This document shows positions 46,757 through 64,000 of a stretch of DNA of 64,000 nt, piece after piece; the first letter of the stretch is position 1, and each line of letters begins with the position of its first letter. The DNA is from an uncultured Thermoplasmata archaeon (GTDB taxonomy: Archaea > Thermoplasmatota > Thermoplasmata > RBG-16-68-12): the NCBI GenBank assembly GCA_963768855.1, contig CAVYJM010000015.1, positions 37,905-101,904 on the forward strand. Reading direction: 5' to 3'. The notes below the pieces were generated by a model. That model searched no databases. It was not told where the DNA came from and saw nothing but the letters and a program-made list of their open reading frames with translations. Position numbers and translations under genes: made by a program.

Positions 46757-46832
46757 TACCAGGAGGGAATGAAGCTGAGGAAATAAAGGCATCCGTCTGA
46801 TTGTGCAAAGCGAGAGAATCCTTTTGCCGGCA

Positions 46833-48139: not shown

Positions 48140-48262
48140 ACTCGGTCCGCCGGATGACCCACGCAGGCTTAAGGGCCTTCGGGCGCAGCCTCAGATGCTC
48201 CTCCGGGTGGACTGCCGGGGCTTACAGGTTGGGTGCCAGGGAGGCCTCGCCCGAAGCGGGTG

Positions 48263-48490: not shown

Positions 48491-48544
48491 GCCCAGAAGG
48501 ATGTGAGCGTGTCAATCATGTCCTGGGCGAGGCCCCGAAGAATC

Positions 48545-48960
48545 CTACGTTCGCCTTCGAACGACGGGCTTTCCCCGAAGCTCCTTGCGGAGCAGAGCGG
48601 AAGCGTTCCGCACTGTGTTTTGAATCGGGAACCTCGCGAGAAGCAGTGCCCATGTCGCCTGACGCACGCTTGCCGGCACTTCCTTCGTCCACACCGAGAT
48701 CCGCGGTCCCTCGGGCGCGGAGGGTGCTCCTTCCGAGGCAGTCAGGCCTAACGTCGTCGAGTCTCGCAAGAACACCTTCGAACCCTTCCCGGGACTCGGG
48801 AGCCACGGGCCCGAAAATGCCACACGCGTTCACGTACCTCTTGTACACTTCCTCAGTTGGGACTGACTTCAACTGTGCCTTTTCTGGAAATACGCAATTG
48901 TGTCCAGAGCGAGGAGTTCCTGGTTCGTTAGGTTCGACAGCGCGTTCGCGTTCTCGGATC
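48545..48960 (-). pseudogene. Frameshifted Cdc6-C-type winged-helix domain
   Basis: NLTNQELLALDTI/KSVPTEEVYKRYVNACGIFG..SREGFEGVLARLDDV/GL matches the Cdc6 wH pattern (TGEVY..Y...C, R.F...L..L...GL). Confidence 0.55.
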
Positions 48961-49097
48961 CGACCGAGACGGGGGGCTCCGACCGTTTCGGATCTAACGT
49001 CGCTGGTGGAGGAGGTGTTGGAGTTCCAGCGTCGCCCACGGTCCCAGCGGGGCTGGTGGCCTCCGCCTGGATCGGAAACGGCGTCGGGACCAGGGAA

Positions 49098-50427
49098 TCA
49101 CCTACCTTCGTGACGCCGGACCCGGGCTGCTCGGAGAGCAGGCTTTTCCGGGTGCCTGTGTGGAGAGTGGAGAGCGTAGACCGCGCGGACGAGCTCGAAG
49201 TCCGCTTTGATCCAGACGAGACGCCGTCGCCCGTACCTCCCCGAGGACTGGACCATGCTTTCCACAAGTCCGTGCATCTCCAGGTTGTCGAGGAAATCGA
49301 GGAAACGGCGACGACGTCGGGGCTCCAGGCCCCAGTCGAAGCACTGCAGCCGGTACTTCTGGAAGAGCTCTTCGGTTGGAGACCACCGCACTGAAGCTGC
49401 GGCGGTCCCCGACGATAGGCTCCATCGCGGGTCCCCTCGCTTGAACGTGAGGAGACCGCTCAGGACTTCCAAGACGACGACTTCGTGGTCCGGCAGGGCC
49501 CGGATGACCTCTTCCGTCCTCTCGCCGTCCGCCTCGGTCCGTGCCCACCAAATGTGGTTGACCGAAGACCTTGGGATACTGTCCTCGGTCCGCGAGCTCC
49601 CCGGCGGTCCTCAAGAGGTGGAGCGCCCGGCGAGCGTCTCCGTGTTCCTCGGAGGCGAGCTTCGCGCATTCCGCGAGCACGTCCTCGTGAAGCTGTCCGG
49701 CCGGAAGGCGGCCTCACGCGCCTTGGAGGATGTCGAGCAGGGTCTGCCGGTCGTACGGGGCGAAGAATACGCTGTGGCTTCCCGTGCTCGACTTCACACG
49801 GCTGTCGAGGCGGACTCCAAGCCCAGGAGCCGGTTCGTGATCGTGATCAGGCCGACGACTGGAGGATCCGCGCTGTTGCGGTGCCGGACGAGCCGGTATA
49901 CGAAGTCCGACGGGTTGTACCGGTCCATGTCCGAACGCCGCGTCCACTTCGTCGAGGACCGAGAGCAGGTACGGCCGGTCTCGCGTCGCGGCCCAGAGTT
50001 GCTCGAAGACGCCGTCGAGGCCCGACACCGGGGGCTCGGACGAACCGGTCACGTTCGACAGAATCCGGTTCGCGACCGCGTACAGAGAATGGCACTGCTT
50101 CAGGTTCACGTACACGACGCGAATCTGTGGGAACTCTTGGCCGGCATGAGCGGTCACCTGCTGGACCACCGTCGTCTTGCCCGACCCTGTGGGCCCGTAG
50201 ACTTGGATCAAGGGAGGCAAGTACCCTTGGTCCACGTCCGCCAGATACCGGACAAGCGTCTCGTACTGCTCCGAGCGTCCGATGATCTCTGGTGTGAACA
50301 GGGACGGGTCGAGGAGGGCCTTGTTCGCGAAGACGCTCTGCGCGGCCTTTTCCCGCTGACGGGCGAATAGGTCGGCGATCGGTGAGCAGACGGATTCGGT
50401 TGCGGTTCCTACAATCTCGGTTTCCAT
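49098..50427 (-). pseudogene. cdc6: Orc1/Cdc6 replication initiator, interrupted by about 5 indels (pseudogene or sequencing errors)
   Basis: [68 protein letters not shown], w[17 protein letters not shown]...GRYG. Indels near 49930, 49812, 49720, 49685 and 49565. Confidence 0.85.
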
Positions 50428-50615
50428 GCACACCACTCCTAGAGACACCGATACTTGAGGCCTCGACGGGGTGTGTGAAAGTATTCCGATACGATATATA
50501 TTGCTGAGGTGGATATTCCTATACGATTACCCCAAAAGGGAGGAGGCAACCTTCGGTCATGGCCTTCAGCGGGTCCCATTGAGTGGTCCGAAAGCCCACA
50601 GCCCTCGCAAAGAAA

Positions 50616-50629
50616 GTTCCACTTGCAGC
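50616..50629 (+). promoter_or_regulatory. Possible degenerate mini-ORB (origin recognition box) upstream of cdc6
   Basis: GTTCCACTTGCAGC resembles the GTTCCA(C/G)T(T/G)GAAAC ORB core and lies near the AT-rich tract 50470-50530. Only one copy is seen and there is no G-string. Confidence 0.25.
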
Positions 50630-50709
50630 ACGACACACGAAACGGAACCGGCGAGACGCTGTTCGGTCGGAATCTCGGCCTGCGAAAGGTTCAGTTCCGC
50701 CTCTTCAAG

Positions 50710-50875
50710 GACGGCGACCGCACATCGGCGAACCGCCGGCATGGCGAAAGTGACGGCCTCGGCACGATCCGCGTCGTCTTCCGCGACGCCTGCCGCGCGC
50801 TCGCGGTCGACGCGTGGGACGGGCGACGCAGACGGCGGGGCTAGGGCAACACGCACCTCGACCCGAAGACGCTCG
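50710..50875 (+). repeat. Zn-ribbon mini-gene repeat, copy A (decayed)
   Basis: GLGTIRVVFRDACRALAVDAWDGRRRRRG*GNTHLDPKTL; core GCGACGCCTGCCG at 50783-50795; TGG to TAG at 50842. Confidence 0.8.
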
Positions 50876-50943
50876 GTCCGATGCTAGCCACGAGCCGTCC
50901 TACTCGGTTCCTCGACAGCCTGCGTCGCGCACTCCTGTGGGAA

Positions 50944-51675
50944 TCACTCGCGCGGCAGGCTGCCGGTCCGGGACAGCGCCGCCCGGAGTTCGAGGACCAA
51001 CCCCCGGGTCCGGTCGGCGAGCCGCCGGAACGCGCGCGGGTCGAGCGCGTGCACGCCCTTCAGGGAGTCCTCGTAGTCCCGTCGCCCGAGCGCGGTCGAG
51101 AGGGCGTCCAGATGCTCTTCCAGGACGTCCCGCCGCACCCCCCGGAGGAAGGCGGCGACGGCCTCCGCGTCCACTCCGGCCCCGGCGAGGACCGCAAGGT
51201 CCCGCAGATCCACGAGGCGGGCCGACTCAAGCTTGAGGGCGACGAGGACCTCGGCGGACGCGACGAGGGGGCGCGCCTCGGACGCGGGGTCCAGACCCCG
51301 CACGGTGCGACGGCGAGCCCAGCGCCGGATCGCCGCGTACGGGTGGGAGGCGCCGGATACGCGGTCCGAGATCCCGTCCACGAGCAGGTCCACGGAAAGG
51401 GGAAGGGCCTCCTTCCCGCGGGACCAGCGCTCCGCGCGGCCCGCGAAGGCGGCTCCTCCGGCCCAGTACCGCATCCGGGCGAGCCCCGCCTCCCGCAAGA
51501 TCGCCTGGAGGCCGGGGACCTCCTTCTCCGGGGTCACGAGGTCCAGATCCAAGGAGAACCGGGGCGGGCCGTAGGCGCTCACCGCGTAGCCGCCGACGAG
51601 GACGGCCTCACGACCCGCCAGCGCGCGGAGGAGGGCAAAGGAGGCGCGCTCCCGCTCGAGATCCCGAGGTTTCAT
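50944..51675 (-). CDS. Nucleotidyltransferase toxin (AbiEii/DUF6036-like)
   Basis: VLVGGYAV..RFSLDLDLV, VDLL, LVALKLESAR.VDLRD; ATGA overlap with the upstream gene. Confidence 0.8.
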   Translation of the reverse strand: MKPRDLERERASFALLRALAGREAVLVGGYAVSAYGPPRFSLDLDLVTPEKEVPGLQAILREAGLARMRYWAGGAAFAGRAERWSRGKEALPLSVDLLVDGISDRVSGASHPYAAIRRWARRRTVRGLDPASEARPLVASAEVLVALKLESARLVDLRDLAVLAGAGVDAEAVAAFLRGVRRDVLEEHLDALSTALGRRDYEDSLKGVHALDPRAFRRLADRTRGLVLELRAALSRTGSLPRE

Positions 51676-52277
51676 GGGTCCTTTCCTCCAAGCGCATCGC
51701 GGAGGATTGGAAGGACCGGCTCGTAGAGGTAGGGCCGGGCGGCGGCGTACCCGTACGCTTCGCGGAGGGGCACGACCCGGACGCCCCCGTGGTCCACGGA
51801 GCGGACCCGCGCGACCGGGTGGAGGACGTGGATCACGCCGAAGAGGGTCTCCCGCGCGCCCGCGACGACGGCCCGCGCGCCCGAGGCGCGGAAGAAGGCC
51901 CTCCAGGCCGAGAGGTCCGTACGCCGAACGCGGAGATGGAGGGGGCGGAAGCCGCGGGTGAAGCCCGTCCAGTACCCCCCGTCGGTCCAGACCGTGACCG
52001 CGGTGGCGTCGCAATACGCGTGGGGGAGCTCGGAGCGGTCCGCGAGGCCGAGGGCGTTTTCCTCCCGCTCGAGGAACGCGTGCATCCGACGCTCGGGGGC
52101 GACGAGCCGATACTTCCCGACCCCCACGGACTCGAGGTAGCCGAGGCGGTGGAGGTCGGAGAGGACCTTGCCGGGGGCGGGGGACGGGAAGGTCTCGCGG
52201 AACGACGCGATTGTGAACGGGTCCGGACCGAACGCCGCGTGAATCCAGGCGTAGAGGGACTCATAGGCGGTGGGCAT
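51672..52277 (-). CDS. AbiEi-like antitoxin with N-terminal winged helix
   Basis: FTIASFRETF..KVLSDLHRLGYLESVGVGKYRL; coupled to the NTase gene. Confidence 0.7.
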   Translation of the reverse strand: MPTAYESLYAWIHAAFGPDPFTIASFRETFPSPAPGKVLSDLHRLGYLESVGVGKYRLVAPERRMHAFLEREENALGLADRSELPHAYCDATAVTVWTDGGYWTGFTRGFRPLHLRVRRTDLSAWRAFFRASGARAVVAGARETLFGVIHVLHPVARVRSVDHGGVRVVPLREAYGYAAARPYLYEPVLPILRDALGGKDP

Positions 52278-52281
52278 TTGA

Positions 52282-52307
52282 TAACCATAATGGTTACTAA
52301 TATTAGT
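52282..52307. promoter_or_regulatory. Two abutting palindromes in the AbiE-like TA promoter
   Basis: TAACCAT-A-ATGGTTA (52282-52296) and ACTAATATTAGT (52296-52307), immediately upstream of the start at 52277. Confidence 0.7.
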
Positions 52308-52401
52308 GCATTCCTATCGGGGGACCGAAACGGCCGCAGAGCCCTCCGGGCTCGTTCCATAGGTGCCGTCTCTTGCGGGGAATGAGGATAACGCCGTGCA
52401 T

Positions 52402-52637
52402 CCTTCCGGCGCCTCCGCGGCAAGGGCATAGAGTGCACGGGCACGACCTAGGTCGGCCACGTCGAGGCCGAGCTCGGCGAGATCCGATACGCCTTCTGCG
52501 ACGCCTGCCGGCCGATCACCGTGGACGCCTGGGGCGCACGACGGCGGCGAGAGAACTGGGGAATCCCGTACCTCGACCCGAGGACCTTTGAACCCAACCC
52601 CGGAATCCGCCGGGAGGATTGGATGGTCGGCCGGTGA
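52402..52637 (+). repeat. Zn-ribbon mini-gene repeat, copy B (decayed)
   Basis: GIECTGTT*VGHVEAELGEIRYAFCDACRPITVDAWGARRRRENWGIPYLDPRTF; TAG at 52449; core at 52498-52510; upstream CCTTCCGGCGCC shared with copy C. Confidence 0.85.
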
Positions 52638-52720
52638 GGGCGGAGGCGTGTATCGCCCCGCTTCCCCAGGAAGGAAGTCGACGCATCGGAGTCGGAGCCG
52701 ACGGGTAACGGAAGGATTGA

Positions 52721-52751
52721 CATGGTATTCTACCATGCAAGACTTTAAATG
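52721..52751 (+). promoter_or_regulatory. Inverted-repeat operator and TATA box of the AbrB-VapC pair
   Basis: CATGGTA-TTC-TACCATG (52721-52737) followed by TTTAAAT (52745-52751), ~23 nt before ATG 52774. Confidence 0.65.
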
Positions 52752-52773
52752 GTATTATGGCATAGAACCCCTC

Positions 52774-53040
52774 ATGGAAGACATCGTCGCGGTGGACCGG
52801 GCCGGACGCGTGGTCATCCCCAAGGCCATCCGCGAGGCGGCCGGAATCGACGAGCGCGCGAAGCTCCTCATCGCCGTCACGGCGGCGGGCCGCATCGTGC
52901 TGCAGAAGCTCGACGTGGAGACCGTCGCCGCGCGCCTCGAGAAGGAGCTCGCGGGGCGCGACGTCGACGCGATCGCGCGCAAGATCCGGGAGGAGATCCG
53001 TGCCCGCGTCCGAAAGGAGTATCCGGACCTTCCTGCTTGA
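52774..53040 (+). CDS. AbrB/MazE-type antitoxin
   Basis: VDRAGRVVIPKAIREAAGI. Confidence 0.88.
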   Translation: MEDIVAVDRAGRVVIPKAIREAAGIDERAKLLIAVTAAGRIVLQKLDVETVAARLEKELAGRDVDAIARKIREEIRARVRKEYPDLPA

Positions 53041-53494
53041 CACGAACGTCTTCGTGGCAGCGGTGAAGCACCCGCGCCGGGAGACCGCGACCTTGCGGTT
53101 CCTCCTCGCCCTCCTCGAGCGGGAGGACCTGCGGCTCGTGGGCAACGCGTTCTGGATCGAGGAGATGGTCCGCTACGCCGAGGAGTTCCGCTCGGAGACC
53201 GCGGCGTGGCTCGTCGGTGCGCTCTTGGACCGCACGAGGGTCGTCCGGGTCGAGCGGAACTTCGTCACGATCTGCGCGAAGTACGTCACGACGCCGGATC
53301 CGGCGGATGTGCTCCACGCGGCGACGTGCCTCCAGGAGAGGGCCATCCTCGTCTCCAACGACCGGCATTTCGACCGCATCCGGGACGAGGGCGTGATCGA
53401 GGTCTGGAGCATTGCCAAGGCGATCCGGTCCCTGGCAGGATCGCACCCCGGCATGAACCCCTTCGCCCACACGGAAGAGTCGCATGAGCCCTGA
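53000..53494 (+). CDS. vapC: PIN-domain toxin (VapC)
   Basis: LLDTNVFV, EEM, DPADVLHAATC, LVSNDRHF; GGAGGAG SD. Confidence 0.9.
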   Translation: MPASERSIRTFLLDTNVFVAAVKHPRRETATLRFLLALLEREDLRLVGNAFWIEEMVRYAEEFRSETAAWLVGALLDRTRVVRVERNFVTICAKYVTTPDPADVLHAATCLQERAILVSNDRHFDRIRDEGVIEVWSIAKAIRSLAGSHPGMNPFAHTEESHEP

Positions 53495-53555
53495 AGCGCG
53501 CTTCGACCGAGTGCTGGACTCCTTCGGGTGGGTCGAGTACTTCCGGGGCACGCCC
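53484..53555 (+). pseudogene. 5' fragment of a second PIN/VapC gene
   Basis: MSPEARFDRVLDSFGWVEYFRGTP (PIN N-terminal xLDSxxWxEYF motif), cut off at the Cas2-like remnant. Confidence 0.55.
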
Positions 53556-53657
53556 GCCGTGGCTCGACGTCCGCTGCCCGTACAGGCGCTTCACGAGCTC
53601 GCTCGCCTTGTCCGGGTCGTACGACGCCAGGCGGAACGCGATCCGCGTGCCCTCCAC
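53553..53657 (-). pseudogene. Cas2/VapD-like mini-gene, copy 3 (5' third)
   Basis: (G)TG MEGTRIAFRLASYDPDKASELVKRLYGQRTSSHGG; DNA at 53580-53648 aligns with 45828-45896. Confidence 0.75.
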
Positions 53658-53698
53658 GGAACCCGTCGTATGCCCGTCATAAAGGCATAGTCCCTCAG

Positions 53699-53925
53699 CC
53701 TTCCGGCGCCCATGGGGGATGTGCATGGAGTGCAACGGCACGACATAGGTGGGCACGTTCGAGGACGACCTCGACACGATCCGCCTCGTCTTCAGCGACA
53801 CCTGCCGCACAATCGCGCTCGCTGCGTGGGACGGGAGGCGGAAGCGGAGGAGCGGGGCCATCACGTGCCTCGGCCCGAGGACTCAGGCCGGCGCTGGTTC
53901 TCTCCGGCAGGCGACCGAGAGGTGA
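53699..53925 (+). repeat. Zn-ribbon mini-gene repeat, copy C (most complete)
   Basis: ATG 53719: MCMECNGTT*VGTFEDDLDTIRLVFSDTCRTIALAAWDGRRKRRSGAITCL; TAG at 53746; core GCGACACCTGCCG at 53795-53807. Confidence 0.85.
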
Positions 53926-53928
53926 GCG

Positions 53929-54579
53929 CTACCGGGGCTCTGGCACCGCGATGGACGCCCACTTCCGAATGTCTTCGAGGAGGCGCCTCATCTCGTCGAC
54001 TTGGCTCAGCATCCGTCCCGCAAAGCCCGGATAGTCAACCTCGCGGAGCAGATGGAGGCGTGGCCCCCCGAGATTGATACACGTGATCCGCCACGCGGGG
54101 AAGCCGCGCTCCAGGAGCCTCGGCTCCGTGCACTCGAAGAAAAAGAGCCACCACGCAGGATTCGAGAGCGCGCCGGCCACCTCGGCCAGCCGCCGGGCGA
54201 TGTCCGGCGGAAGTCCGTTGATGGGTTTCCGGCTCCGCTCGAGCAGCCGTCGACGGTACCCGCGAATGGCGCGCTCGAACTTCGCGTGCTCTCCCACGCC
54301 CGGTGTCGCGATCGTTCCGTCCGCCCGGCCCATCAGGGTGAACTGGAACACCAGCGAAGCGTCGACGCCCATGATGGTCGTGACGTAGAGCCCGTTGTCG
54401 AACTGGAATCGATGGCGGCGGGACAGGGGCTGAAACCAACCTCGGTGGCTCACGATCCGGGCGGCGCCTTGGCGGAGGATCTCATCCTCAATCCACGCCA
54501 TCTCATGTTCGAACCGGGCGACCATCGCTTGAAACCAGCGACTCCCGTCTCGCCGCGGCAGGCGGAGGAGCCAGGGCAT
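53929..54579 (-). CDS. Hypothetical protein (216 aa)
   Basis: Globular, aromatic-rich sequence (MPWLLRLPRRDGSRWFQAMVARFEHE...); no family recognised. Confidence 0.55.
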   Translation of the reverse strand: MPWLLRLPRRDGSRWFQAMVARFEHEMAWIEDEILRQGAARIVSHRGWFQPLSRRHRFQFDNGLYVTTIMGVDASLVFQFTLMGRADGTIATPGVGEHAKFERAIRGYRRRLLERSRKPINGLPPDIARRLAEVAGALSNPAWWLFFFECTEPRLLERGFPAWRITCINLGGPRLHLLREVDYPGFAGRMLSQVDEMRRLLEDIRKWASIAVPEPR

Positions 54580-54702
54580 CACGTACCTCGTGCCCAAGGA
54601 CGGTCGGGCGCACGTCCTTCGCCCGACGGGATGACTCCCATCCGGTAACGGCCGCTTTCTTAAATACCGGGAGAAGCCGATGGTCCGGAGGGAGGAGTCT
54701 CC

Positions 54703-55626
54703 GTGAAGGACGTTCGGGCTCGGCTCTGGCTCCAGTCGATCCGCGGCCCCTTCCTTGTCGCCTCCCTGGTCCCCGCCTGCGTGGGCGGGCTCGCGGCGTG
54801 GCAAGTCCGGTCTGCCTTCAATCCCGCCCTCTTCCTCCTGGCCCTCCTCGGCGCAGTCTGCATCCACATCGCCGCGAACATGGCCAACGACGCGTGGGAC
54901 TACCGGAGCGGGAACGACCTCGCCGTGCGGCACCGCAACCCGTTCGCGGGCGGCGGTCGCGTCTTGATCCAGGGCGTCCTCGATCCGCGGCTCCATCTCG
55001 CCGTCGCGATGGGCTTCCTCGTCGCGGGTTCCCTGATCGGTTTGTACCTGGTCTCCCTCGTCGGCTGGCCTCTCTTCGTGCTCGGCCTCTTCGGCGTCCT
55101 CGTCGCGTACGCCTACGTCGGGCCGCCCCTCCGGCTCGCACACCACGGCGTCGGAGAGGTCGCGGTCGGGCTCGAGTTCGGGCCCGTCGTGCTCCTGGGG
55201 ACGTACTACGTCCTGACGCGGGCATTCGACCCGCCCGCCGTCGTCCTGTCCGCGGTGATGGGCCTCCTCGTCACGGGCATCCTGTGGATCAACGAGGTCC
55301 CGGACGTCGCCGCGGACGCCGCGGTCGGCAAGCGCACCCTCGTCGTGCGCCTGGGCGTGGGTCGCGCGACCGTGGCCTTCCAGGGGATCATCGCGGCGGC
55401 GTACGCAGTCCTCGTCCTCGGCGTGGCCTTCGCCGGCCTGACGCCTTGGGCGCTGCTCGCCCTGCTCAGCGTGCCCCTGGCCCTCCGGCCCGTTCGCGGG
55501 CTGCGGCGCACCGGGGGCGACCCGAACGCCCTCATCCCCTCGAACGCGGCGATGATCGTGACCACGTTCGTGGCGGGGGCGTTGCTCGCGGCCGGGCTGG
55601 CCATCGACGCGTTCCTCCTGCCGTGA
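54703..55626 (+). CDS. menA: 1,4-dihydroxy-2-naphthoate polyprenyltransferase (UbiA family)
   Basis: NMANDAWDYRSGND, GGGRVL, YVGPP..L...G.GE, INEVPDVAADAAVGKRTLVVRLG; TTAAATA promoter at 54660. Confidence 0.9.
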   Translation: MKDVRARLWLQSIRGPFLVASLVPACVGGLAAWQVRSAFNPALFLLALLGAVCIHIAANMANDAWDYRSGNDLAVRHRNPFAGGGRVLIQGVLDPRLHLAVAMGFLVAGSLIGLYLVSLVGWPLFVLGLFGVLVAYAYVGPPLRLAHHGVGEVAVGLEFGPVVLLGTYYVLTRAFDPPAVVLSAVMGLLVTGILWINEVPDVAADAAVGKRTLVVRLGVGRATVAFQGIIAAAYAVLVLGVAFAGLTPWALLALLSVPLALRPVRGLRRTGGDPNALIPSNAAMIVTTFVAGALLAAGLAIDAFLLP

Positions 55627-55731
55627 CCGTGAGCCCCGCCATCGCCGAGGCCGCCTCCATCGACCTCCGATTCGGCGCTCCCACCGAAAGACATATAACC
55701 ATATTACACAGATAACATACACAGGTCCACT

Positions 55732-55989
55732 ATGGAAATCAAGACGATCGCCCTCGACCGCGAGGCGTACGACCTCCTCCGGAAGCGCAAGCGAAAGGAC
55801 GAGAGCTTCAGCGACGCGGTCAAGCGCATCGCGCGGGAGACGCGGCCCGTGTCCGCCTTCGCGGGCGTCTGGAGGAAGCACCTCTCCGACTCGGACCTTG
55901 AGACGATCGAGAAGATCGAGAAGGCTCTCTGTCGCGGACGGGCGGCGGACCGCGAGCGGACGCGCAAGCTCCTCGTGCGGCAGGGATGA
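55732..55989 (+). CDS. VapB-type antitoxin (UPF0330-like)
   Basis: KTIALDREAYDLLRKRKRKDESFSDAVKR..FAGVW. Confidence 0.88.
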   Translation: MEIKTIALDREAYDLLRKRKRKDESFSDAVKRIARETRPVSAFAGVWRKHLSDSDLETIEKIEKALCRGRAADRERTRKLLVRQG

Positions 55990-56378
55990 GGGTGCGCTGC
56001 CTCGATTCGACCTTCCTCATCGACCTCCTCAAGGGCGACCCGGCCGCGACGGCGAAGATGCGGGAGATCGAGGCCCTGGGCGAGGCGGTCAGCCTGCCCG
56101 CTCCCTGCCTCGCGGAGGTCCTCCTCGGCGCGCACTTCAGGGGCGGCGACCTGCTCCGGGTTACGCTGGATGTCGTCGAGCGCCTCGATGTGCTCGAGGT
56201 CGATGCCGTTGTCGCGGGGGAGGCCGGCCGACTGGGCGCGGAACTCCTTCGACGCGGTGAGTCGCTGCCGACCACTGACCTGCTCATCGCGGCCGCCGCG
56301 CGGCTGAGCGGGCAGATCCTCGTCACGCGGGACACGGACTTCGCGCGGATTCCCGGCCTCGCCGTCGAAGGATACTGA
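55986..56378 (+). CDS. vapC: PIN-domain toxin (VapC)
   Basis: CLDSTFLIDLL, LAEV, DLLIAAAA, LVTRDTDFARIPGL; ATGA overlap. Confidence 0.92.
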   Translation: MRVRCLDSTFLIDLLKGDPAATAKMREIEALGEAVSLPAPCLAEVLLGAHFRGGDLLRVTLDVVERLDVLEVDAVVAGEAGRLGAELLRRGESLPTTDLLIAAAARLSGQILVTRDTDFARIPGLAVEGY

Positions 56379-56407
56379 AGGCGCGGGAACCTCTTCGGAG
56401 GCGTACA

Positions 56408-56433
56408 TATAAGTGGTTATAAGGAATTATAAG
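56408..56433 (+). promoter_or_regulatory. Three TATAAG direct repeats at exact 10-bp period in the TA promoter
   Basis: TATAAG at 56408, 56418 and 56428, immediately before ATG 56436. Confidence 0.7.
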
Positions 56434-56435
56434 CG

Positions 56436-56624
56436 ATGATGAGCACGACGACGATCCCGATCTCCCGCGAGGTCCGCGACCGGCTCAAACGGCTCGCCTC
56501 GAAGGGAGAGACGTACGACGCCCTCCTGCGGCGCATGATCGCGGACGCGGAGGCTCGCCTCCTGTACGAGCGGGAGAAGCGCATCCTGGAGACCGAGGAG
56601 TTCGTCCCTCTTGACGAAGCGTAA
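56436..56624 (+). CDS. Ribbon-helix-helix-type antitoxin
   Basis: TTIPISREVRDRLKRLASKGETYDALLRRMI; C-terminal EEFVPLDE. Confidence 0.82.
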   Translation: MMSTTTIPISREVRDRLKRLASKGETYDALLRRMIADAEARLLYEREKRILETEEFVPLDEA

Positions 56625-56892
56625 GGTCCTCCTCTCCAGGACCGCGCTCCGCGAGCTGGAGCGGCTGCCCACCGACGCGGCTCGAAGGCTTCGCGAGCGG
56701 ATGGAGGCGCTCGGGGACGACCCCATCCGTCCGCGTCCCGGGGCGGACATCAAGCCCTTGTGGACCGACGACGATCCGCCCATGTACCGCCTGCGGGTCG
56801 GCGACGACCGCGTCCTCTACTTCGTCCTCCCGGGTGAGGTTCGCGTCACCGAGATCGTCCACCGGTCCCAGGCGGATCGTGGCTTGGACTGA
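56611..56892 (+). CDS. relE: RelE/ParE-family toxin
   Basis: ALRELERLP, DIKPL, YRLRVGDDRVLY, IVHR. Confidence 0.88.
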   Translation: MTKRKVLLSRTALRELERLPTDAARRLRERMEALGDDPIRPRPGADIKPLWTDDDPPMYRLRVGDDRVLYFVLPGEVRVTEIVHRSQADRGLD

Positions 56893-57082
56893 CTGCGCTC
56901 TGGCGCCGGAGGGTCTGCTCCAGCTTCTCGCGGAGCACGTCCCGCGGCAGCTCTCGCATCCCGACGTGTCGGTTCAGCCACATCACGTGCCTCACGTCGC
57001 TCGCCTCCGCCAACGCCCAGAAGTGGTCCGCAAGGCGTGCGACGTCCGCGAGCTCAGCGGGGCACACGGGACAAGCGATCAT
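56846..57082 (-). CDS. Small C2H2 zinc-finger protein
   Basis: CPVC...LADH...DVRHVMWLNRH; GTGA overlap with the upstream gene. Confidence 0.7.
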   Translation of the reverse strand: MIACPVCPAELADVARLADHFWALAEASDVRHVMWLNRHVGMRELPRDVLREKLEQTLRRQSAVSPSHDPPGTGGRSR

Positions 57083-57387
57083 CGGAGGTCCAGTCGCGTG
57101 ATCGTGCCGTCGTCGTTGCCTGCCACGAAGAAGCGCACTTCCTGCTTGCCGCAGCGCGCCCGGCCGTCCGCCTCGTTGCCCTGCATGTCATCCAGGAACA
57201 GGAAGTCGACGCGCGGCCAGCCGGTCTTCGTCTTGAGCACGTTCGCCGCGTTCTCCCACGCGTCCGCGCAGAGGGAACAGCAGAAGAAGCGGTTCACGCC
57301 TTCGACCGTGCGCCAGTAGTTCCCCCAGGAGCTCCCGCAGAGGGCGCAGCCCGCGTCCTTCGACTCCCCGGGGATCGGCTCGGTCAC
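57079..57387 (-). CDS. TA0938-family zinc-binding protein
   Basis: GCALCGSSWGNYW..VEG..FFCCSLCA..KTGW matches the Thermoplasma TA0938 pattern (GCALCG.TWG.YY..FFCC.ICA..RTGW). Confidence 0.8.
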   Translation of the reverse strand: MTEPIPGESKDAGCALCGSSWGNYWRTVEGVNRFFCCSLCADAWENAANVLKTKTGWPRVDFLFLDDMQGNEADGRARCGKQEVRFFVAGNDDGTITRLDLR

Positions 57388-58118
57388 GTCCCCGCCTCCA
57401 GGAGTTCGCGCCGCCGCTCCGCAATCGCCTCGAGGTAGAGCCGCATGTCCTCCATGGATCGTCGGAAGGTCGTGAGCACAGCCTCGGGCGTGGAGTCCGT
57501 CGCGGCGTACTTCGCCACCAGATCCGCCGCGCGACCCGCGTGGGCCGTGTCCGCGGCCGTCGTCGAGAGCCAGCGGCGCGTGGCCGGGCCGAACGCGCCC
57601 TGCTCGATGAAGCTCCGGTCGCTCACGATGGAGGGCATCGCGAAGTCCGGGTGCTTCTTGAGGCGCTGGTCCGCGAGCATCTCCGTGCCGTGGACCGCGG
57701 CCATGGCCTCCACCCAGGGCCGGTCGCGCACGATGGCGTACCAATCGACGATCGCGCGCTGCATCTTCGGGTGGGCCCGTCCGCGGTCGATCTCCTGGTC
57801 GCTCCAGCCGCTCTCCCGGCACGCCTGCCTCACGATCACATAGTGCCCCCCGCCCACCGCCGGGTCATGGACGAGCTTGTCGTGCAGGTTGTCGATCTCG
57901 TACTCCCAGACGTCCTGATGGGGACACCGCGCGACGATGGCGCCGCACCACCGCGGGAAGGCCTGGAGGAATCGCCAGTGCTCGATCGTCATGGCCTTCA
58001 CGAACGCGGCGTCGGGCGAGTAGAGGACGCGGATCGCCTCCGGCGCGTCCTTCGAGTAGAAGGCGCGCACGACGATCGTCCGCAGCCGGTCCTGAAGGGA
58101 TTCCGCAGCTTCGCCCAT
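57384..58118 (-). CDS. Heme-oxygenase-like helical-bundle protein (PqqC/CADD/TenA superfamily)
   Basis: AFPRWCGAIVARCP, DNLHDK...H, W.EAMAA..GTE, ADTAH; all-helical; first gene of a 3-gene coupled operon. Confidence 0.75.
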   Translation of the reverse strand: MGEAAESLQDRLRTIVVRAFYSKDAPEAIRVLYSPDAAFVKAMTIEHWRFLQAFPRWCGAIVARCPHQDVWEYEIDNLHDKLVHDPAVGGGHYVIVRQACRESGWSDQEIDRGRAHPKMQRAIVDWYAIVRDRPWVEAMAAVHGTEMLADQRLKKHPDFAMPSIVSDRSFIEQGAFGPATRRWLSTTAADTAHAGRAADLVAKYAATDSTPEAVLTTFRRSMEDMRLYLEAIAERRRELLEAGT

Positions 58119-58409
58119 TCCATCGCCCCGCTCCGCTTCGCGCTCACAAGCCATGAACCTTCCCGTCGATGAAGTTGATGAATTCATCGCCGTCGATGCC
58201 GGGTGGCGGCCCACGGATCGGCCACTCCATCCGGACCCGGGAGAGCGTGCGGCGTGGGCCTGCGTGAACGCCAAGGTCGTCTAGCCCAGGACCCTGCCTC
58301 CCCGAGCCATGGACGGGCCATCCGTCGGGTTCCAGGTGGTGTCCCCCACGCGCGAGGGAAACCGCACGGCGGGGTCCACCGCGTGGCCACGGAGGCGGCC
58401 ATCAGGACG

Positions 58410-58552
58410 GCCATCGGGCATGGCCATGGTGGAAGCCAGACGATGGCTCCTCCCTGGGCGACGCCTGCCGGACGATCGCCGGGGACGCCTGGGACGCGCG
58501 CCAAGGACGAAAGAGCTGGGGCATCACCCACCTAGAACCGGAGACACCCTAA
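58410..58552 (+). repeat. Zn-ribbon mini-gene repeat, copy D (internal deletion)
   Basis: GDACRTIAGDAWDARQGRKSWGITHLEPET; core at 58458-58470; upstream CCATCGGGC shared with copy F. Confidence 0.75.
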
Positions 58553-58711
58553 CGTCCCGGCACGATAGCTGTCCGCGCCCTGCCGCACCGCCACCCTGAG
58601 CCCAAGGATAAATCTCGGGCCCGATAACGGCAGCCTGCGTTCTTAATAGAGCCACGGCGAAAGGATTCCGCGGTCGGTCAGCGCCTTCGCGACGCGGGAG
58701 GCCGATGCATC

Positions 58712-61700
58712 ATGCTCCGAGTTCCAGTAGCCTTGGCCGAGGCCATCCTGCTCCGCGGTCTCGGCAAGGCTCTCGCCACCGTGCTCGTCCTCGCACCCAC
58801 GAAGCTGAGGATGCAGACCCAAGTCAAGAAGATTTTCGTCTTGGACGGCACGGGCGAGGTGGCGAACGAGTACGTTCTCGACGCCACCTGCCCCCTGACG
58901 TACGACGACTTCCTCAAGGCCTTGCCGGAGAAGGACCTCGGCGACCGAGAGGCTCTCTTCGTCGGCGAGTACGCCTTCACGATCTTCCGGAGTGGCCGGT
59001 CCGCGTTCGTCGTCCTGTCCCGGGGACGCCTGGCCCCCGAGGACGTCGAATGGACGGGGTTCCTCCTCACGACCGCGGCGTCCGACCGGGTTCCCTCGCA
59101 CGCCGCCGGGGGGGAAGCACCTGACTCGCGTCCCGCCCGAGAGCTCGCGGGCCCCCGTCCGGACGGTGCGGCGCACGTCGAGACGCCCGAGAAGGGGCTC
59201 GGCGACGTTGAGGCGCGTAAGATCGAGAAATTCCTCCAGAAGCGCGCGTTGGACCTCTTCGACCGCGAGGAGAAGCTCCGGACCCGAGAGGAGGGCATCG
59301 CTCCCCGCGAACGGAGTCTGGACGGACGGGAGGAGTCGCTCCGCGCCAAGGAGTCGTCCCTCGCCCGTAAGGAGCAAGCGCTCCGCGAGCTCGAAGCCCA
59401 TCTCGCGGCCGACCGCGCGACGCTGCAAGGCGACGTCGCCGCCTTCGAGGCCGGTGCCCACGATCGCAAGGTGCAGTTCGACGCACACACGGGCAAGTTC
59501 CGGGAGGAGGAAGCCCGCAAGGCGGAGGAGCTCCGGCAGTGGGAGGCCGCCTTGGAGTCCGAAAAGGCCCTCCTCACCGAGCGACGTTCGAGCTTCGAAG
59601 AGGAGATGGCCGACGTCCGGGACTCCTGGACGGGCCGGATCGCCCGCGTGGAGCGGCAGGAGGGCGACGTGCGCAACCGGGGGGACCGGATCCGTGCCGA
59701 CGTCGAACGGGTCGCGCGGAGCGGGGACGAATTCACGCGGCGCGAGAAAGCCCTCGAGGAGAGCGCGCGGGGGAACGCCGAACTCAAGGTCCAACTCGGG
59801 GAACTCCAGAAGGAACTCCACCAACGATCCCTCGACATCGAGACTTGGGAGCGGGCGCACGAGGAGAAGGCGACCGCCCGGACCGCCGAGCTGGCCGAGC
59901 GCGAGGAAACCATCGCGGCTGGCCTGGCGAGTCTCGCTCGCCGCACGGCGGAGTCGGAGCAAGCCCTAGCTGCGAAGACTCGGCGGTTCGAGGAGGCCGA
60001 AGGCGACCTCGCCAAGCGCAGGATGGAAGTAGAGGCGCACGCCACGGAACTCGAACGCCGCGCGAAGGAATTGGCCGATCGCGTCTCGCGCCTCGATGCG
60101 GATACGGTCCGCCTGGTCCAGGAGCAGGCCGAACAGAAGGCACAGGCCCAGCAGCTGCAAGCCGAGCGGCTCGGCCTCGCCCAAGCCAAGGAAGTCCTGG
60201 ATGCTGACACGTCCCGATTCCGAATCGAGTCGGACGAGGCGCGGAAAGCCCTGGGGAACGAGGCGGCCAATCTCCGCGCGGATCGGGGGCGGTTTGAAAC
60301 GGAGTCCTCCGTGGTGCGGCGCGAATGGGAGTCCAAGGCTCGCGAGACAGCGGACCACGAGAAGACCCTCGCCGTACGCGAAGACACCCTCGCCGCAGCC
60401 GAACACGAACTCGAGCTGCGTGCCCGAGAGATCGAGGACCGCGAGCGTGCGGCCGAGGCCCAAGGGACCGCCTTGTCGGCGGAGGCCGAACGACTGGCCC
60501 GCGCAGACCAGGACATGGCGAGGCGCACGGGGGCGTTCGACGAGAAGGTCGCAGGCTTTGAAGCCGAGGCGGCGGCGAAGCGAACGGATTGGGAAGCGCG
60601 GGAGTCCTCGTTCCAATCGCGGCAGGTCGAGTTCTCCGCGAACGTGGAAAGGCACGAGGCGGAGATCGCGAAGCGGACCGAGGAGGTGGCCCGGCGCGAA
60701 CAGCTCCTGGAGGCCGCGTCCGCGCACCTCCAGCAGGAGCACGCCCGCCTGGAGGCCGAGGGGAAGGACCTCACGGCCCGAGAGGCCGACGTCGAGGCGG
60801 CGTTCGCACGGGCCGAGGCACGGGCCGCCGAACTGCGGTCGGTGGACGAGGCCCTCGCCAAGGCCCAGGCAGCGTTCGATTCGGAGAAGGACGCGTGGGC
60901 GGCCCGCCGCGACGACGAGCTGCACCAGCTCAAGGCTGCTCAGGAGGCCGCACGAGAGCAGGCGGAGCGAGCCGACCACCTCGGCCAGGAGGCCCAGCGG
61001 CGTGAGGCCGAGGCGTCGGACGCGAAGCAGGCCGCGGAGCAGGAGAGAGCGAAACTCCTGGAGCAGCAGGCACAGGTTCAGGCCCGCGGGGCTGAAGCCG
61101 AACGGGCTCTGCACGAAGCCGAGGCCCGAATGGGCCAGCTTGAAGAGACCGCCAAAAGGCTCGCGGAGCGGGAAGCGAACCTCGGGCTCCAGATCCGCGC
61201 CGTGGAGATCCGCGAAACCAAGCTTGCCGCATCCGAGGAAGCTCACGGCATCGCAATGGCCGATCTCCAGAACCAGCGCGAGGCGCTCGCCCGCGACGAC
61301 GAACGCCTTTCCTCCTGGACCGCGGAGCTGGAACGGAGGACGACGGAGGACGACGCGCGTCGGGTCGCCCTGGATTCCAAGGTCGCCGAGGTGGCCAAGC
61401 ACCAGGAGGCCTTGTCGGCCGACCTCCACTGGAGTGACAACCTGATGGCCAACCTGGTCCGCAAGGAAGATGCCCTGGACGCACGCGACAAGGACCTGGC
61501 CGAGCGCGAGGGACGGCTCGCAGAATCGGAGGAGGCTCTGGCGCAGCGGGACGCGGACCTCCGGGAACACGCCCAGGCCCTGGATCGCATCCGGAACGAG
61601 CATGCGACCGTCGCGGCCGAGTTGGAAGCGGCCCGCCGGGCCCTCACGGAGGCCCACCAGGAGTCCGAGACCAGCCACGCCGAGGCCGCTCGGGTGAGGG

Positions 61701-62134
61701 CGCAAGCGGACGCGCTGAAGGCGGACGTCTCGAAGGAGGTGCGGTCCGCCCAGAGGAAGGCCCTCGACATCTTCCTCCAGGAGGAGAAGCTCCGAGCTCG
61801 GGAGGCGCAGGTCGAGAGCGCGGAGAAGGCCCTGGACGCTCGCCGGGGAGCCTTGGAGGAGGAGGAACGGTCCTGGGAGGCGAGACGGGGGCAGACCGAG
61901 GGCGAGCTCGCCACGATGCGGACGGAGGTCGAGGCGCTACGCGCGAAGCTCGGCGGGGTCGACACGCGGACCCCGCCGGCCGGTGGCCCGGACGATGCGA
62001 AGGGAGGTGCCGAGGGCCGCACCAAGCTCACCCCGAGCGCGCCCCAGCTCCGAGACCGCGCGGATACGACGGGTGAGGGAGACGAGCACGTTCCGCCCCG
62101 CAAGGCGAAGCGGGCGGCCACGAAGGCACCGTAA
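58712..62134 (+). CDS. Giant coiled-coil protein (~900 aa E/R/A heptads) with N-terminal alpha/beta (longin/roadblock-like) domain
   Basis: KIFVLDGTGEVANEY...YAFTIFRSGRSAFVVLSRG head domain, low-complexity linker, continuous charged helical rod, basic tail; no Walker motifs. Confidence 0.8.
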   Translation: MLRVPVALAEAILLRGLGKALATVLVLAPTKLRMQTQVKKIFVLDGTGEVANEYVLDATCPLTYDDFLKALPEKDLGDREALFVGEYAFTIFRSGRSAFVVLSRGRLAPEDVEWTGFLLTTAASDRVPSHAAGGEAPDSRPARELAGPRPDGAAHVETPEKGLGDVEARKIEKFLQKRALDLFDREEKLRTREEGIAPRERSLDGREESLRAKESSLARKEQALRELEAHLAADRATLQGDVAAFEAGAHDRKVQFDAHTGKFREEEARKAEELRQWEAALESEKALLTERRSSFEEEMADVRDSWTGRIARVERQEGDVRNRGDRIRADVERVARSGDEFTRREKALEESARGNAELKVQLGELQKELHQRSLDIETWERAHEEKATARTAELAEREETIAAGLASLARRTAESEQALAAKTRRFEEAEGDLAKRRMEVEAHATELERRAKELADRVSRLDADTVRLVQEQAEQKAQAQQLQAERLGLAQAKEVLDADTSRFRIESDEARKALGNEAANLRADRGRFETESSVVRREWESKARETADHEKTLAVREDTLAAAEHELELRAREIEDRERAAEAQGTALSAEAERLARADQDMARRTGAFDEKVAGFEAEAAAKRTDWEARESSFQSRQVEFSANVERHEAEIAKRTEEVARREQLLEAASAHLQQEHARLEAEGKDLTAREADVEAAFARAEARAAELRSVDEALAKAQAAFDSEKDAWAARRDDELHQLKAAQEAAREQAERADHLGQEAQRREAEASDAKQAAEQERAKLLEQQAQVQARGAEAERALHEAEARMGQLEETAKRLAEREANLGLQIRAVEIRETKLAASEEAHGIAMADLQNQREALARDDERLSSWTAELERRTTEDDARRVALDSKVAEVAKHQEALSADLHWSDNLMANLVRKEDALDARDKDLAEREGRLAESEEALAQRDADLREHAQALDRIRNEHATVAAELEAARRALTEAHQESETSHAEAARVRAQADALKADVSKEVRSAQRKALDIFLQEEKLRAREAQVESAEKALDARRGALEEEERSWEARRGQTEGELATMRTEVEALRAKLGGVDTRTPPAGGPDDAKGGAEGRTKLTPSAPQLRDRADTTGEGDEHVPPRKAKRAATKAP

Positions 62135-62470
62135 TCGCCGCCGCTCAGGCCCGTTTCTCGAGAATCCGGTCGACCCGCCTCCACAACGCCCGCCACTCCT
62201 TCGAGGTCCCTCATCGCCTCGCCCGGTTCATCCGGAGGACCGCGGCATCGTGGGCCGCGAGAGCCCGAAGGGACTCGTCCGGGCTCTGGGTGCGTCGTCG
62301 GAGGGCCTCGAGGATCACCTCCACCTCACGGCGCGCGGCCTCGGTCCTTCGGAGGCGGACCTTCGGGGTCTCCACGGAGGATACGATGGCCCCGGACCGG
62401 ATGAACGATTCGGAGAGAGACGCGAACGAGGCATCCGAAAAGCCGGGGAGGAAAGGCGGGCGGGAACGCA

Positions 62471-62674
62471 GATTGCAACGGCACGACCGCCGTAGGCACG
62501 CTCGAAGACGACCCCGGAGGGATCCGCGCCGTCTTCTGCGACGCCTGCCGGACGATTGGCGTGGATGCGTCAGGCGCAGACTCGAAGCGGGAGCCAAGGG
62601 GCTCCCGACGACCTGAGACCATTCGCGCGGGAGGGCTTGCCGGACACCGCCGGCAGCGATGGGATGCGCTCTAG
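62471..62674 (+). repeat. Zn-ribbon mini-gene repeat, copy E (decayed)
   Basis: DCNGTTAVGTLEDDPGGIRAVFCDACRTIGVDA; TGCAACGGCACGAC identical to copy C; core at 62538-62550. Confidence 0.85.
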
Positions 62675-62839
62675 GCGATTCCGTCGATGGGCGAGTGTCG
62701 TACTCTCTCGGCGGTCGATCGTGCCGTCTTGGCTCGTGCGGGTGGAACTGCCACCCTGACGGCGCTCCGGGACCGAATGAGTTTGCGATGGCGCGCAATG
62801 GATTAATACTGTCACGCTGGTGTCAACAGTCTGACCGCG

Positions 62840-63763
62840 ATGAGAATCGGGATTGTCGGGGCCGGAGCGCAAGGCTGCTTCTTCGGTGCTCTCCTAGCGA
62901 ATGCCGGTAACCAGGTGACCTTCATCGCGAGGGGACAAGCTCTGAACGCACTGCGAACGAATGGGCTTCGCGTCAAATCACAATCTCTCGGCGAAATCGC
63001 CTTGCCCGTGAGTGCGACGGACCGGCCGGATGAGGTCGGGCCCGTCGACCTGATCATGTTCTGCGTGAAGACGTACGACCTCGAGCCCGCTGCGAAGCAA
63101 ATGCTCCCCCTTGTGGGACGAGACACGGCCATCCTACCCATTCAAAACGGCGTGGAAGCGGCGGACAACATCGGGAGCATCGTGGGGATGGAACATGTTC
63201 TCGGGGGAGTCTCCTGGGTGGGGGCCATGGCCGAGAAGCCCGGCGTGATCGTACACGGAGGCTCCACGAGGCTGGTGTTCGGTGAACTGAACGGAGGGAT
63301 CTCGAGTCGGGCGGAACGGATCTGCAAGACCCTCACCGAAGCCAAGATCGCCGCGGAACTCCACACGAACATCCGCCAAGCATTGTGGGAGAAGCTCGTG
63401 GTGAACTCCGCCGCAGCCGGCATTCTTTCGCTCACCCGATTGCCGGCGGGGCCGGTCCTGGATTGCTCGGATACGATGCAGCTTCTAATCGACACCATCC
63501 GGGAGAGTGCGGAGGTGGCCAAGGCGTGTGGATTCCCGCCACCTGAGCGGTTCCTCGACGATGCCAAGAAGCTGCTCGAAGGATACCCGAGGTGGACGAG
63601 GCCATCCATGGAGGTGGACCTGATTGCAGGTCGCCGCCTGGAGCTCGAAGCCATGGTTGGGGCCATCGTCCGATTGGGCCGGGAAAAGGGGGTAGCAACG
63701 CCCATCAACTCCACCATCTACCGGGCGCTCAAGCCTCACGTGAACGGTACGCCCTCCATGTGA
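62840..63763 (+). CDS. panE: 2-dehydropantoate 2-reductase (PanE/ApbA family)
   Basis: GAGAQG, CVKTYD, QNGVE, WEKLVVN, SMEVDLIAGRRLELE. Confidence 0.92.
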   Translation: MRIGIVGAGAQGCFFGALLANAGNQVTFIARGQALNALRTNGLRVKSQSLGEIALPVSATDRPDEVGPVDLIMFCVKTYDLEPAAKQMLPLVGRDTAILPIQNGVEAADNIGSIVGMEHVLGGVSWVGAMAEKPGVIVHGGSTRLVFGELNGGISSRAERICKTLTEAKIAAELHTNIRQALWEKLVVNSAAAGILSLTRLPAGPVLDCSDTMQLLIDTIRESAEVAKACGFPPPERFLDDAKKLLEGYPRWTRPSMEVDLIAGRRLELEAMVGAIVRLGREKGVATPINSTIYRALKPHVNGTPSM

Positions 63764-63956
63764 GGTCAGCGCCCTCCGCGGGTCTCCGTGCTCGTCCGCT
63801 GCGAATCGCGCACATCCCTTCACGACGGCTTTTCGAATCGAATCCGCCCGGGTCTTGGACGTGCGGTACTTACGTGCGGACTCGGAGAGAAGCCGCGCTG
63901 AGCCCGCCTCCAACTCGCATTGAACTCGGATCATGATGATCTGAGGCACGTGCGGG

Positions 63957-64000
63957 CCATCGGGCGCCCATGCAGCGAGGCGGGGAGTGCAACGGCACGA
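63957..64000 (+). repeat. Zn-ribbon mini-gene repeat, copy F (cut by the window end)
   Basis: GGAGTGCAACGGCACGA (63984-64000) is identical to 53727-53743; upstream GGCGCCCATG is also shared with copy C. Confidence 0.75.

Follow-up and report, generated by a model that had tools for sequence, protein, structure and literature searches.

At the end of a 64,000-nucleotide stretch of contig CAVYJM010000015.1 (positions 37,905–101,904; hereafter the window) from an uncultured Thermoplasmata archaeon, we found co-oriented, decayed copies of one small gene that stand between unrelated cargo genes, many of them toxin–antitoxin (TA) pairs. The repeated unit is, by its alignment with intact homologues in relatives, the pseudogene of a real 54-residue gene, here called mini. 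Intact mini is paired with a second conserved gene, X, and the pair heads similar arrays elsewhere in the genus. We hold, with about even confidence, that the array is the fossil record of serial insertions anchored by homology at the mini gene.

Copies were located in the 2.87-Mb assembly of this genome (G000) with an nhmmer model of the unit, in which the end at position ~184 is the stop codon. Six of them, units A–F, lie on the plus strand of the window, which finishes at the end of its contig (C15), together with a short tail-only fragment (Table 1). The original prediction had described these six same-strand copies, a 13-mer and a 17-mer shared among them, and the breakage of every complete copy; nhmmer, a direct-repeat scan and the translations bore it out on each point. 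Units A, B, D and E carry the 13-mer unchanged, and unit C carries it with one mismatch; allowing at most one mismatch, the 13-mer has six matches in the window against 0.64 expected by chance, and five of the six fall within A–E. The 17-mer is identical in C and F. Unit A has exchanged a cysteine for arginine and a tryptophan codon for TAG, and its 5′ half is unrecognisable. In B the start codon has become ATA and a tyrosine codon TAG, and in C a tyrosine codon (TAC) has become TAG and a cysteine serine. Unit D has a lost or unrecognisable 5′ half and ends in TAA at the family's normal stop position, E lacks a start codon and carries a 5-nt deletion near its 3′ end, and F also lacks a start codon.

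Five more units (G–K) lie on the minus strand of a second contig (C11:410717–425977), 1.4–16.6 kb from its end, and a search of the whole assembly gave no copies outside the window locus and this contig end. Each copy in the genome lacks a start, a cysteine or an unbroken frame, or all of these at once, such that all 11 mini copies, as well as all three copies of X, are broken. In a related species, segments homologous to both contig ends are interleaved on a single contig (G009:C13). Because both sets of units sit at contig ends and their contents are interleaved on that one contig, the two ends very probably form a single locus of at least 30 kb, split by an assembly gap. The remainder of unit F is not present in the final bases of C11, and we rejected a direct join; a gap or a further contig must therefore lie between C15 and C11.

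The intact homologue that the original prediction proposed to look for exists. Using the only unbroken copy in the genus (P0002 of G013) as query, a protein search found 24 intact homologues, mostly of 54 residues and ~80% identical in amino acid sequence. The dN/dS values among intact copies are 0.15–0.32, which indicates that these homologues are under purifying selection, and TAG, TAA and TGA end different copies at one shared codon position. In a set of six copies (B, C and H of G000, two broken copies of G009 and the intact copy of G013), substitutions at codon positions 1, 2 and 3 number 200:208:234, a pseudogene-like distribution. With intact homologues under purifying selection and a unit that forms no hairpin (see below), the claim that the recurring junction is a dead mini-gene and not attC stands. 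The family was found only in this genus. A scan of GTDB genomes returned members of the same group plus one weak match in Methanomassiliicoccales, and the IMG/VR viral contigs searched held no relative; on these grounds we rejected a viral origin.

Other readings of the unit were also discarded. All six of its frames are open in this 65% GC DNA, and none shows a third-position bias among the broken copies; a gene on the opposite strand was rejected since the plus frame is backed by the intact homologues, their dN/dS and the shared stop positions. The TAG common to B and C is a one-base change of the tyrosine codon TAC. Other copies have TAC, GCC or TGA at this position, and most intact homologues have tyrosine, a few threonine or tryptophan; the stop is thus not conserved in functional homologues, which rules out recoding by pyrrolysine or selenocysteine. 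A structured RNA or riboswitch was ruled out by the lack of an Rfam match at E ≤ 1, of a consensus structure and of a nearby tRNA.

As to the protein, the original prediction of a CxxC..CxxC zinc ribbon does not fit the intact relatives. Such a ribbon has two CxxC/CxxH knuckles with four ligands, whereas an alignment of 25 intact proteins conserves only C3, C24 and C27; an extra upstream cysteine is present in copy C alone, and no Pfam zinc-ribbon family matched mini at E ≤ 10. The zinc-ribbon assignment is thus unproven, and metal binding by three cysteines could still occur. The AF2 model of mini is a four-strand beta meander (pLDDT 85), for which Foldseek, ESM Atlas and VIA-align searches returned generic small beta-meander matches and no informative structural neighbour. 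Cas2 chains appeared among many equal structure matches (TM about 0.4–0.5, Z 6.4), and we made no Cas2 assignment. Neither mini nor X matched a family in Pfam, NCBIfam or PADLOC. In copies that lack the stop, the frame continues into a second conserved motif, R-x-L-D/E-R-L/V-R-R-A-F-A, ~15–20 codons downstream (window 50881–50925; after units G, H and J in locus L001 of C11; P0006, P0011, P0015, P0019 and P0026). There may be a longer mini isoform of ~75–83 residues, or a conserved downstream element.

In all contexts checked (L040, L041, L049, L051, L053 and L054), intact mini is divergent from X, a minus-strand open reading frame (ORF) of ~96–112 codons whose start lies 57–68 nt upstream, and X lies in this same divergent arrangement on 12 of 12 soil-metagenome contigs that hold a full mini copy with flanking sequence. 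Judged by this arrangement, the real unit is a divergent two-gene module of X and mini. The X family has more than 120 strongly conserved proteins without annotation and reaches into bacteria (for example, a Sulfurimonas metagenome-assembled genome (MAG)). X is predicted to fold in a generic ferredoxin-like manner (pLDDT 88), a profile search of PDB sequences gave no known family, and the predicted complex of X with mini scored 0.23, below the mark, which speaks neither for nor against binding. X occurs in 8 and mini in 8 of 38 genomes of the genus, largely the same ones, where both are multi-copy and fragmentary. The usual place of the pair in relatives is the edge of a surface-glycosylation cluster, directly after its glycosyltransferase and methyltransferase genes.

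The window retains this module in pieces. The same glycosylation cluster occupies 41–45.5 kb, and X copy 1 directly follows the methyltransferase that closes it. Between X copies 1 and 2 stands a galU-like/ugd pair, an indication that glycosylation genes too can be cargo between X repeats. X copy 3 and unit C together (53553–53878) are 83% identical over 326 nt to positions 9553–9878 of L041, an intact head. Unit B also aligns to this locus (L041 9642–9918), and its span takes in the 60 nt that natively separate the two genes, as well as ~16 nt from the 5′ end of X. Outside the genus, X occurs without mini (on the 790-kb scaffold L055, and in L056/L057); one such X lies between an aspartyl-tRNA synthetase gene and a ferredoxin/2-oxoacid oxidoreductase operon, and another adjoins a DDE transposase and a tyrosine integrase. 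Archaeal and bacterial X records are about 55–60% identical. In yet another genome, G051 (L033/L058), an AbiE pair lies between X and intact mini, in the position and orientation of the window AbiE pair beside unit B and with no nucleotide similarity to it. This suggests that the X/mini intergenic region has repeatedly served as a landing place for AbiE.

Relatives are represented by MAGs or short contigs only, and the soil-metagenome array loci were picked by an exact match to the core (described below), which makes them unusable as evidence of core conservation. A full X/mini pair stands at the head of co-oriented arrays in 8 of the 38 genomes, as it does on many soil contigs. Clustered, co-oriented copies occur in G009 (five on one contig), G052 and G053, and all copies on a contig share one strand throughout: 7 and 5 in G000, 5 in G009 and 2–4 on nine other contigs. 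The order is X, full mini, a 99-codon ORF, a tail, MazE-PIN, a truncated unit, a winged helix-turn-helix (wHTH) gene, a truncated unit and PIN in L070; X, full mini, PIN and a truncated unit in L084; X, full mini, AsnA, a full unit, VapB-PIN and a unit in L075/L049; and Usp, unit, Ras-like GTPase, unit, wHTH and unit in L063. In the last of these, the Ras/Roc-like small GTPase gene forms a single-gene cassette between two units, and the array abuts the gene for the DNA polymerase D large subunit (L063:2293–3192 and L063:4843–8262), such that arrays are not limited to the border of the glycosylation cluster. The tail-then-UbiA arrangement of the window recurs in L066.

Cassettes are mostly spaced at 0.8–1.7 kb, each with one gene or one TA pair, and a unit often begins 0–13 nt past the stop codon of the cargo. 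Truncated copies invariably retain the 3′ end through model position ~184. We found no single sharp boundary at their 5′ ends, which scatter over one group at ~58–87, just before the conserved core, and tails at ~107–147. The recurrent minimal form, ahead of unrelated cargo, spans model positions ~70–184. Tail-only fragments are ~45–55 nt long, and one in G053 directly follows a full unit.

Single cassettes recur among genomes in changing company. In a tree of 28 unit copies, those of G000 are not monophyletic; they are scattered among those of other genomes, and each copy goes with a cargo of its own. Unit H groups with copy G009_b and unit I with copies of G005, G053 and L049 (both with 99% support), in each case with the same preceding cargo, and unit C clusters with the L040 and L041 head copies. 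VapB-PIN and its unit (the clade of unit I) are present in G000, G005, G052, G053 and L049 with differing neighbours, the left neighbours being different in four genomes. The block of CopD and unit H is followed by VapB-PIN in G000 and by MazE-PIN in G009, and after the block of AbiE and unit B different DNA follows in G000, G009 and G053. Thus, copies are confined to two contig ends that very probably form one locus, and module content and order differ between related genomes; genome-wide scatter and an identical gene order in relatives, which the original prediction had named as signs against itself, were both absent. Orthologous units of G000 and G009 are 80–84% identical, and the flanking genes have pS values of 0.17–0.29, which means that the units drift at about the neutral, synonymous rate. 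The array is therefore a fossil in G000 and not a working platform, as its units have drifted neutrally since the G000–G009 split. By the same comparison the array predates that split, and the process is, to judge from its copies, long dead in G000. Arrays with intact heads in relatives may still be active.

No recombination machinery was detected with the array. A six-frame search of the whole assembly for the tyrosine recombinase family PF00589 gave seven matches, all of them off C15 and at least 380 kb from the C11 end; about 60 island ORFs had no recombinase Pfam match, and we saw no tyrosine recombinase on the array contigs scanned. The RNAalifold consensus of 12 units came to −1.0 kcal/mol with 7 pairs and no covariation, and single-stranded DNA folds of 5 units on both strands gave z values of +0.2 to −1.7 against shuffles, with no attC-type hairpin. 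Nor do the copies behave as miniature inverted-repeat transposable elements or other transposons, being restricted to one locus (two contig ends) and one strand, with no inverted termini in the alignments. The feature most suggestive of a DNA site is a core of 22–26 nt, in which ~11% of sites are off consensus in the G000 copies (hand count), as compared with tree branch lengths averaging roughly 0.27 substitutions per site. The residues that this core encodes are the most conserved ones of the protein, and its codons end in G or C, which accounts for its preservation without any DNA-level function.

Cargo families were assigned with Pfam, and AbiEii also with PADLOC. The interval contents of the original prediction were recovered as MazE/AbrB-PIN, UbiA, VapB-PIN, DUF7557-ParE, the coiled-coil protein and PanE, with the correction that the AbiE pair lies on the minus strand. 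Among the predicted TA cargo, MazE and PIN, VapB and PIN, DUF7557 and ParE, and AbiEii (PF08843, 28.7 bits against a cut-off of 22.5; AbiEii in PADLOC) score above the Pfam cut-offs. The AbiE pair is 90% identical to G009:C13 by blastn, and its AbiEi N-terminus is shared with G009 and G053. MazE-PIN is 86% identical to a G009:C13 cassette, where it follows a different unit. Within the C–D interval, the C2H2, Ta0938 and TENA/haem-oxygenase-like genes overlap as one operon. An insert of 5.07 kb (48488–53552) lies between the two arms of an imperfect direct repeat of ~34 nt inside X (48454–48487 and 53553–53586), formed by the right end of X copy 2 and the left end of X copy 3. It holds an Orc1/Cdc6 gene split into at least two frames, unit A, the minus-strand AbiE pair, unit B and MazE-PIN, and has the appearance of a single replicon that integrated within the array and then decayed.

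On C11, the order is SDR, tail G, NHL propeller, a CopD-like gene, unit H, VapB-PIN, unit I, glyoxalase, Usp, MarR, ABC-2, unit J, FtsZ, SDR, C39 peptidase, MFS, PIN and unit K. One PIN of this contig scores above its cut-off with a VapB-like partner below (20.3 against 27.9 bits), and the second PIN stands alone. The FtsZ-family gene between unit J and the SDR gene is complete (L001 9867–11015; C11:417197–418345).

Table 1 Units, X copies and cargo of the island in the window.
Feature	Position	Strand	Description
X copy 1	45635–45907	−	Pseudogene without a start codon, interrupted by an internal stop; alignments to the intact X genes of L041, L040 and L033
Sugar-nucleotide pair	45896–48200	−	NTP-transferase, galU-like, 45896–46915 (PF00483); UDP-glucose dehydrogenase, 46833–~48100 (PF03721/PF00984/PF03720)
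X copy 2	48270–48487	−	Broken middle and 3′ part; alignments to L033 and L041
Orc1/Cdc6 remnant	49098–50448	−	AAA part 49714–50448, winged helix 49098–49472; AAA_16, AAA_22, Cdc6_C
Unit A	50691–50870	+	Mini-gene pseudogene; nhmmer E 9e-34
AbiE-type TA pair	50944–52277	−	AbiEii from 50944 in ORF 50944–52014, overlapping AbiEi-like 51672–52277
Unit B	52345–52585	+	nhmmer match 52403–52585, E 6e-45
MazE/AbrB antitoxin and PIN toxin	52588–53494	+	PF04014, PF01850
X copy 3	53553–53657	−	5′ fragment; directly adjoins unit C in the manner of the native divergent pair
Unit C	53700–53882	+	"Native" head copy, now broken; nhmmer E 1e-42
Tail-only unit fragment	54558–54592	+	35 nt; nhmmer model positions 142–176; upstream of UbiA
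UbiA prenyltransferase (C–D)	54703–55626	+	Pfam
VapB (C–D)	55732–55989	+	Pfam
PIN (C–D)	55986–56378	+	Pfam
DUF7557 (C–D)	56436–56624	+	Pfam
ParE (C–D)	56611–56892	+	Pfam
Minus-strand operon (C–D)	56846–58274	−	C2H2 zinc finger (PF16293) 56846–57082; Ta0938 family 57079–57822; TENA/haem-oxygenase-like ORF ending at 58274
Unit D	58375–58545	+	nhmmer E 3e-29
Coiled-coil protein	58712–62134	+	1140 aa; weak SMC/Rad50-type coiled-coil matches only
Unit E	62455–62618	+	nhmmer E 2e-31
Ketopantoate reductase PanE	62840–63763	+	PF02558, PF08546
Unit F	63957–64000	+	Only the 5′ end, cut off where window and contig finish (C15:101904)

How could such arrays arise? We suggest that mini served as a homology anchor for the repeated uptake of short DNA segments. 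Incoming or excised DNA, circular or looped, would carry a mini homologue (its 3′ part or all of it) and one gene or operon, and would recombine with the resident mini by a Campbell-type single crossover, probably catalysed by the general recombination machinery. Each such event would leave the head at full length, place new cargo behind it and create a second mini copy after the cargo. This second copy would often be 5′-truncated, to an extent that depends on the incoming homology, whereas its 3′ end would always be whole; variable 5′ ends with a constant 3′ end are what crossover with partial homologues predicts. Repetition, exchange between units and deletions would then yield a co-oriented array, reshuffled and eroded. 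TA cargo would be over-represented plausibly because TA resists loss, and a stabilisation of the arrays by TA is likewise plausible by analogy. We infer the crossover, the circular intermediates and the role of TA from the pattern of the copies.

Several observations weigh against this account. The copies are only 70–80% alike and would be a poor substrate for homologous recombination unless they were once more similar. That copies repeatedly keep the 3′ ~110 nt, and that the core is well preserved, could instead point to a site recognised by a protein. The model leaves unexplained how new cargo and a unit come to be linked in the first place, some cargo (FtsZ, ABC-2 and PanE) resembles ordinary chromosomal genes, such that part of the pattern may reflect rearrangement and not capture, and the joining of C15 to C11 was deduced, not read.

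Among described systems, the closest logic appears, by analogy, to be that of the rhs/cdiA arrays of orphan toxin/immunity modules, which have been explained by displacement and recombination (the "displaced orphan module"; PMC4927057), with independent cargo here as the variable part. Both have a full-length head followed by same-strand, 5′-truncated copies that keep the 3′ part (L070, L084 and L075/L049); both read as a fossil record of acquisitions, in which the homology kept would permit recombination with the head. In rhs/cdi, however, the variable part is the C-terminus of the repeated gene with its immunity gene, whereas the repeat here is conserved through its stop and the cargo is unrelated to it (TA pairs, AsnA, UbiA, PanE and GTPase). 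In addition, no transposase or integrase lies between the modules here, and the head has 54 codons, not thousands.

The arrays also invite comparison with integrons, including archaeal integrons and the TA-rich superintegrons of chromosomes (PMC9668308), in that short, co-oriented cassettes are each followed by a repeat of ~110–185 nt, cassette order and content vary between related genomes, a conserved head stands at one end and TA genes are frequent. The differences lie in the parts: neither IntI nor another tyrosine recombinase was found nearby, the repeat is a fragment of a protein-coding gene without inverted-repeat hairpin or covariation, cargo lies on both strands, repeat boundaries vary, and the units of G000 drift neutrally. 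The integron analogy thus holds for architecture only. What stood of the integron-like cassette platform in the original prediction was the clustering of co-oriented copies between self-contained modules, many of them TA pairs; the missing recombinase and hairpin, the varying 5′ points and the neutral drift, which mark a fossil, tell against the platform itself.

Nevertheless, a dedicated site-specific system deserves to be weighed, in which the mini 3′ ~110 nt with its core would be the recombination site for a specific protein, either a recombinase encoded elsewhere or X and/or the mini protein, and cassettes would excise and insert at that site. We consider it unlikely. The cassette size, the close fit of units behind cargo stop codons, the strict co-orientation, the recurrent ~70–184 form, the low divergence of the core and an X/mini head in the place of intI/attI are all as such a system would have them, and TA genes and small enzymes are typical integron cargo, also in archaea (PMC9668308). 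Against it, C15, the C11 end and the array contigs scanned are without a tyrosine recombinase, hairpin and covariation are missing, the 5′ boundaries do not fall at one nucleotide, coding constraint accounts for the core, orthologous units drift at about the neutral rate, and the ferredoxin-like fold of X bears no likeness to a recombinase. An undescribed, integrase-independent archaeal capture system with X/mini as its platform and the mini 3′ ~110 nt as its site, where X, the mini protein or a recruited host enzyme would catalyse or direct the reaction, seems to us improbable to the same degree. Slightly less probable is a history without capture, in which the X/mini locus was copied together with its neighbours by ordinary segmental or tandem duplication, and differential deletion, replacement of genes and decay then left the units as paralogues in a rearrangement-prone island. 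Many junctions do look illegitimate, for example those of a ParE 5′ part with the tail of a unit (G009), of a unit with a 5′-truncated ParE (G013) and, in the window, of a PIN 3′ end with a fragment of VapB/PIN. Gene ends are the exact points at which synteny with relatives breaks, X is itself multi-copy and fragmentary in the same genomes, and the PIN modules are paralogous. Duplication predicts repeated cargo, however, and the cargo between units is mostly unrelated in sequence and function; nor does it sit well with the interleaving of G000 copies, each with its own cargo, among those of other genomes, and random deletion does not predict that independent contigs share a full head with 5′-truncated, 3′-complete copies.

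Tandem islands at the 3′ ends of genes (tRNA, tmRNA or protein-coding attB) offer a further parallel. There, too, co-oriented 3′ gene fragments bound inserted DNA, and the Orc1/Cdc6 remnant and TA genes in the inserts and the hypervariable spot beside the surface-glycosylation cluster are in keeping with it. The repeats would then be ghosts of att sites left by plasmid- or virus-like elements that integrated serially at X/mini by integrases since lost. The nested 5.07-kb insert, with its broken Orc1/Cdc6 gene between repeats inside X, is the best-fitting case; the tail-only fragments, particularly the one behind a full unit in G053, the TA modules as typical addiction cargo and the distant-lineage X beside an integrase and a DDE transposase fit as well. 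For the array as a whole we nevertheless think this origin quite improbable: most inter-unit segments are cassette-sized, too small for integrase-bearing elements, the island yielded no integrase remnant, the family was not found among the viral contigs searched, and the repeats are gene copies of 110–185 nt, many of them full-length and diverged (70–80% identity), not short, identical cores. Serial homology-anchored insertion at mini therefore remains the explanation that we prefer.

Cassette arrays are a main route by which prokaryotes sample accessory genes. To our knowledge, they have so far been tied either to the integrases and attC hairpins of integrons or to the giant genes of polymorphic toxins. 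The same architecture recurs here, in an uncultured genus of soil Thermoplasmata, with a repeat gene of 54 codons and no recombinase found in the sequence tested. The locus defines two conserved, unannotated protein families, mini within the genus and X extending into bacteria, and the X/mini head provides a marker for variable islands in these archaea. If general recombination built the arrays, one conserved small gene alone can nucleate an accretion hotspot; if instead a dedicated activity did so, they would represent a new recombination system, a functional analogue of the integron made from unrelated parts.

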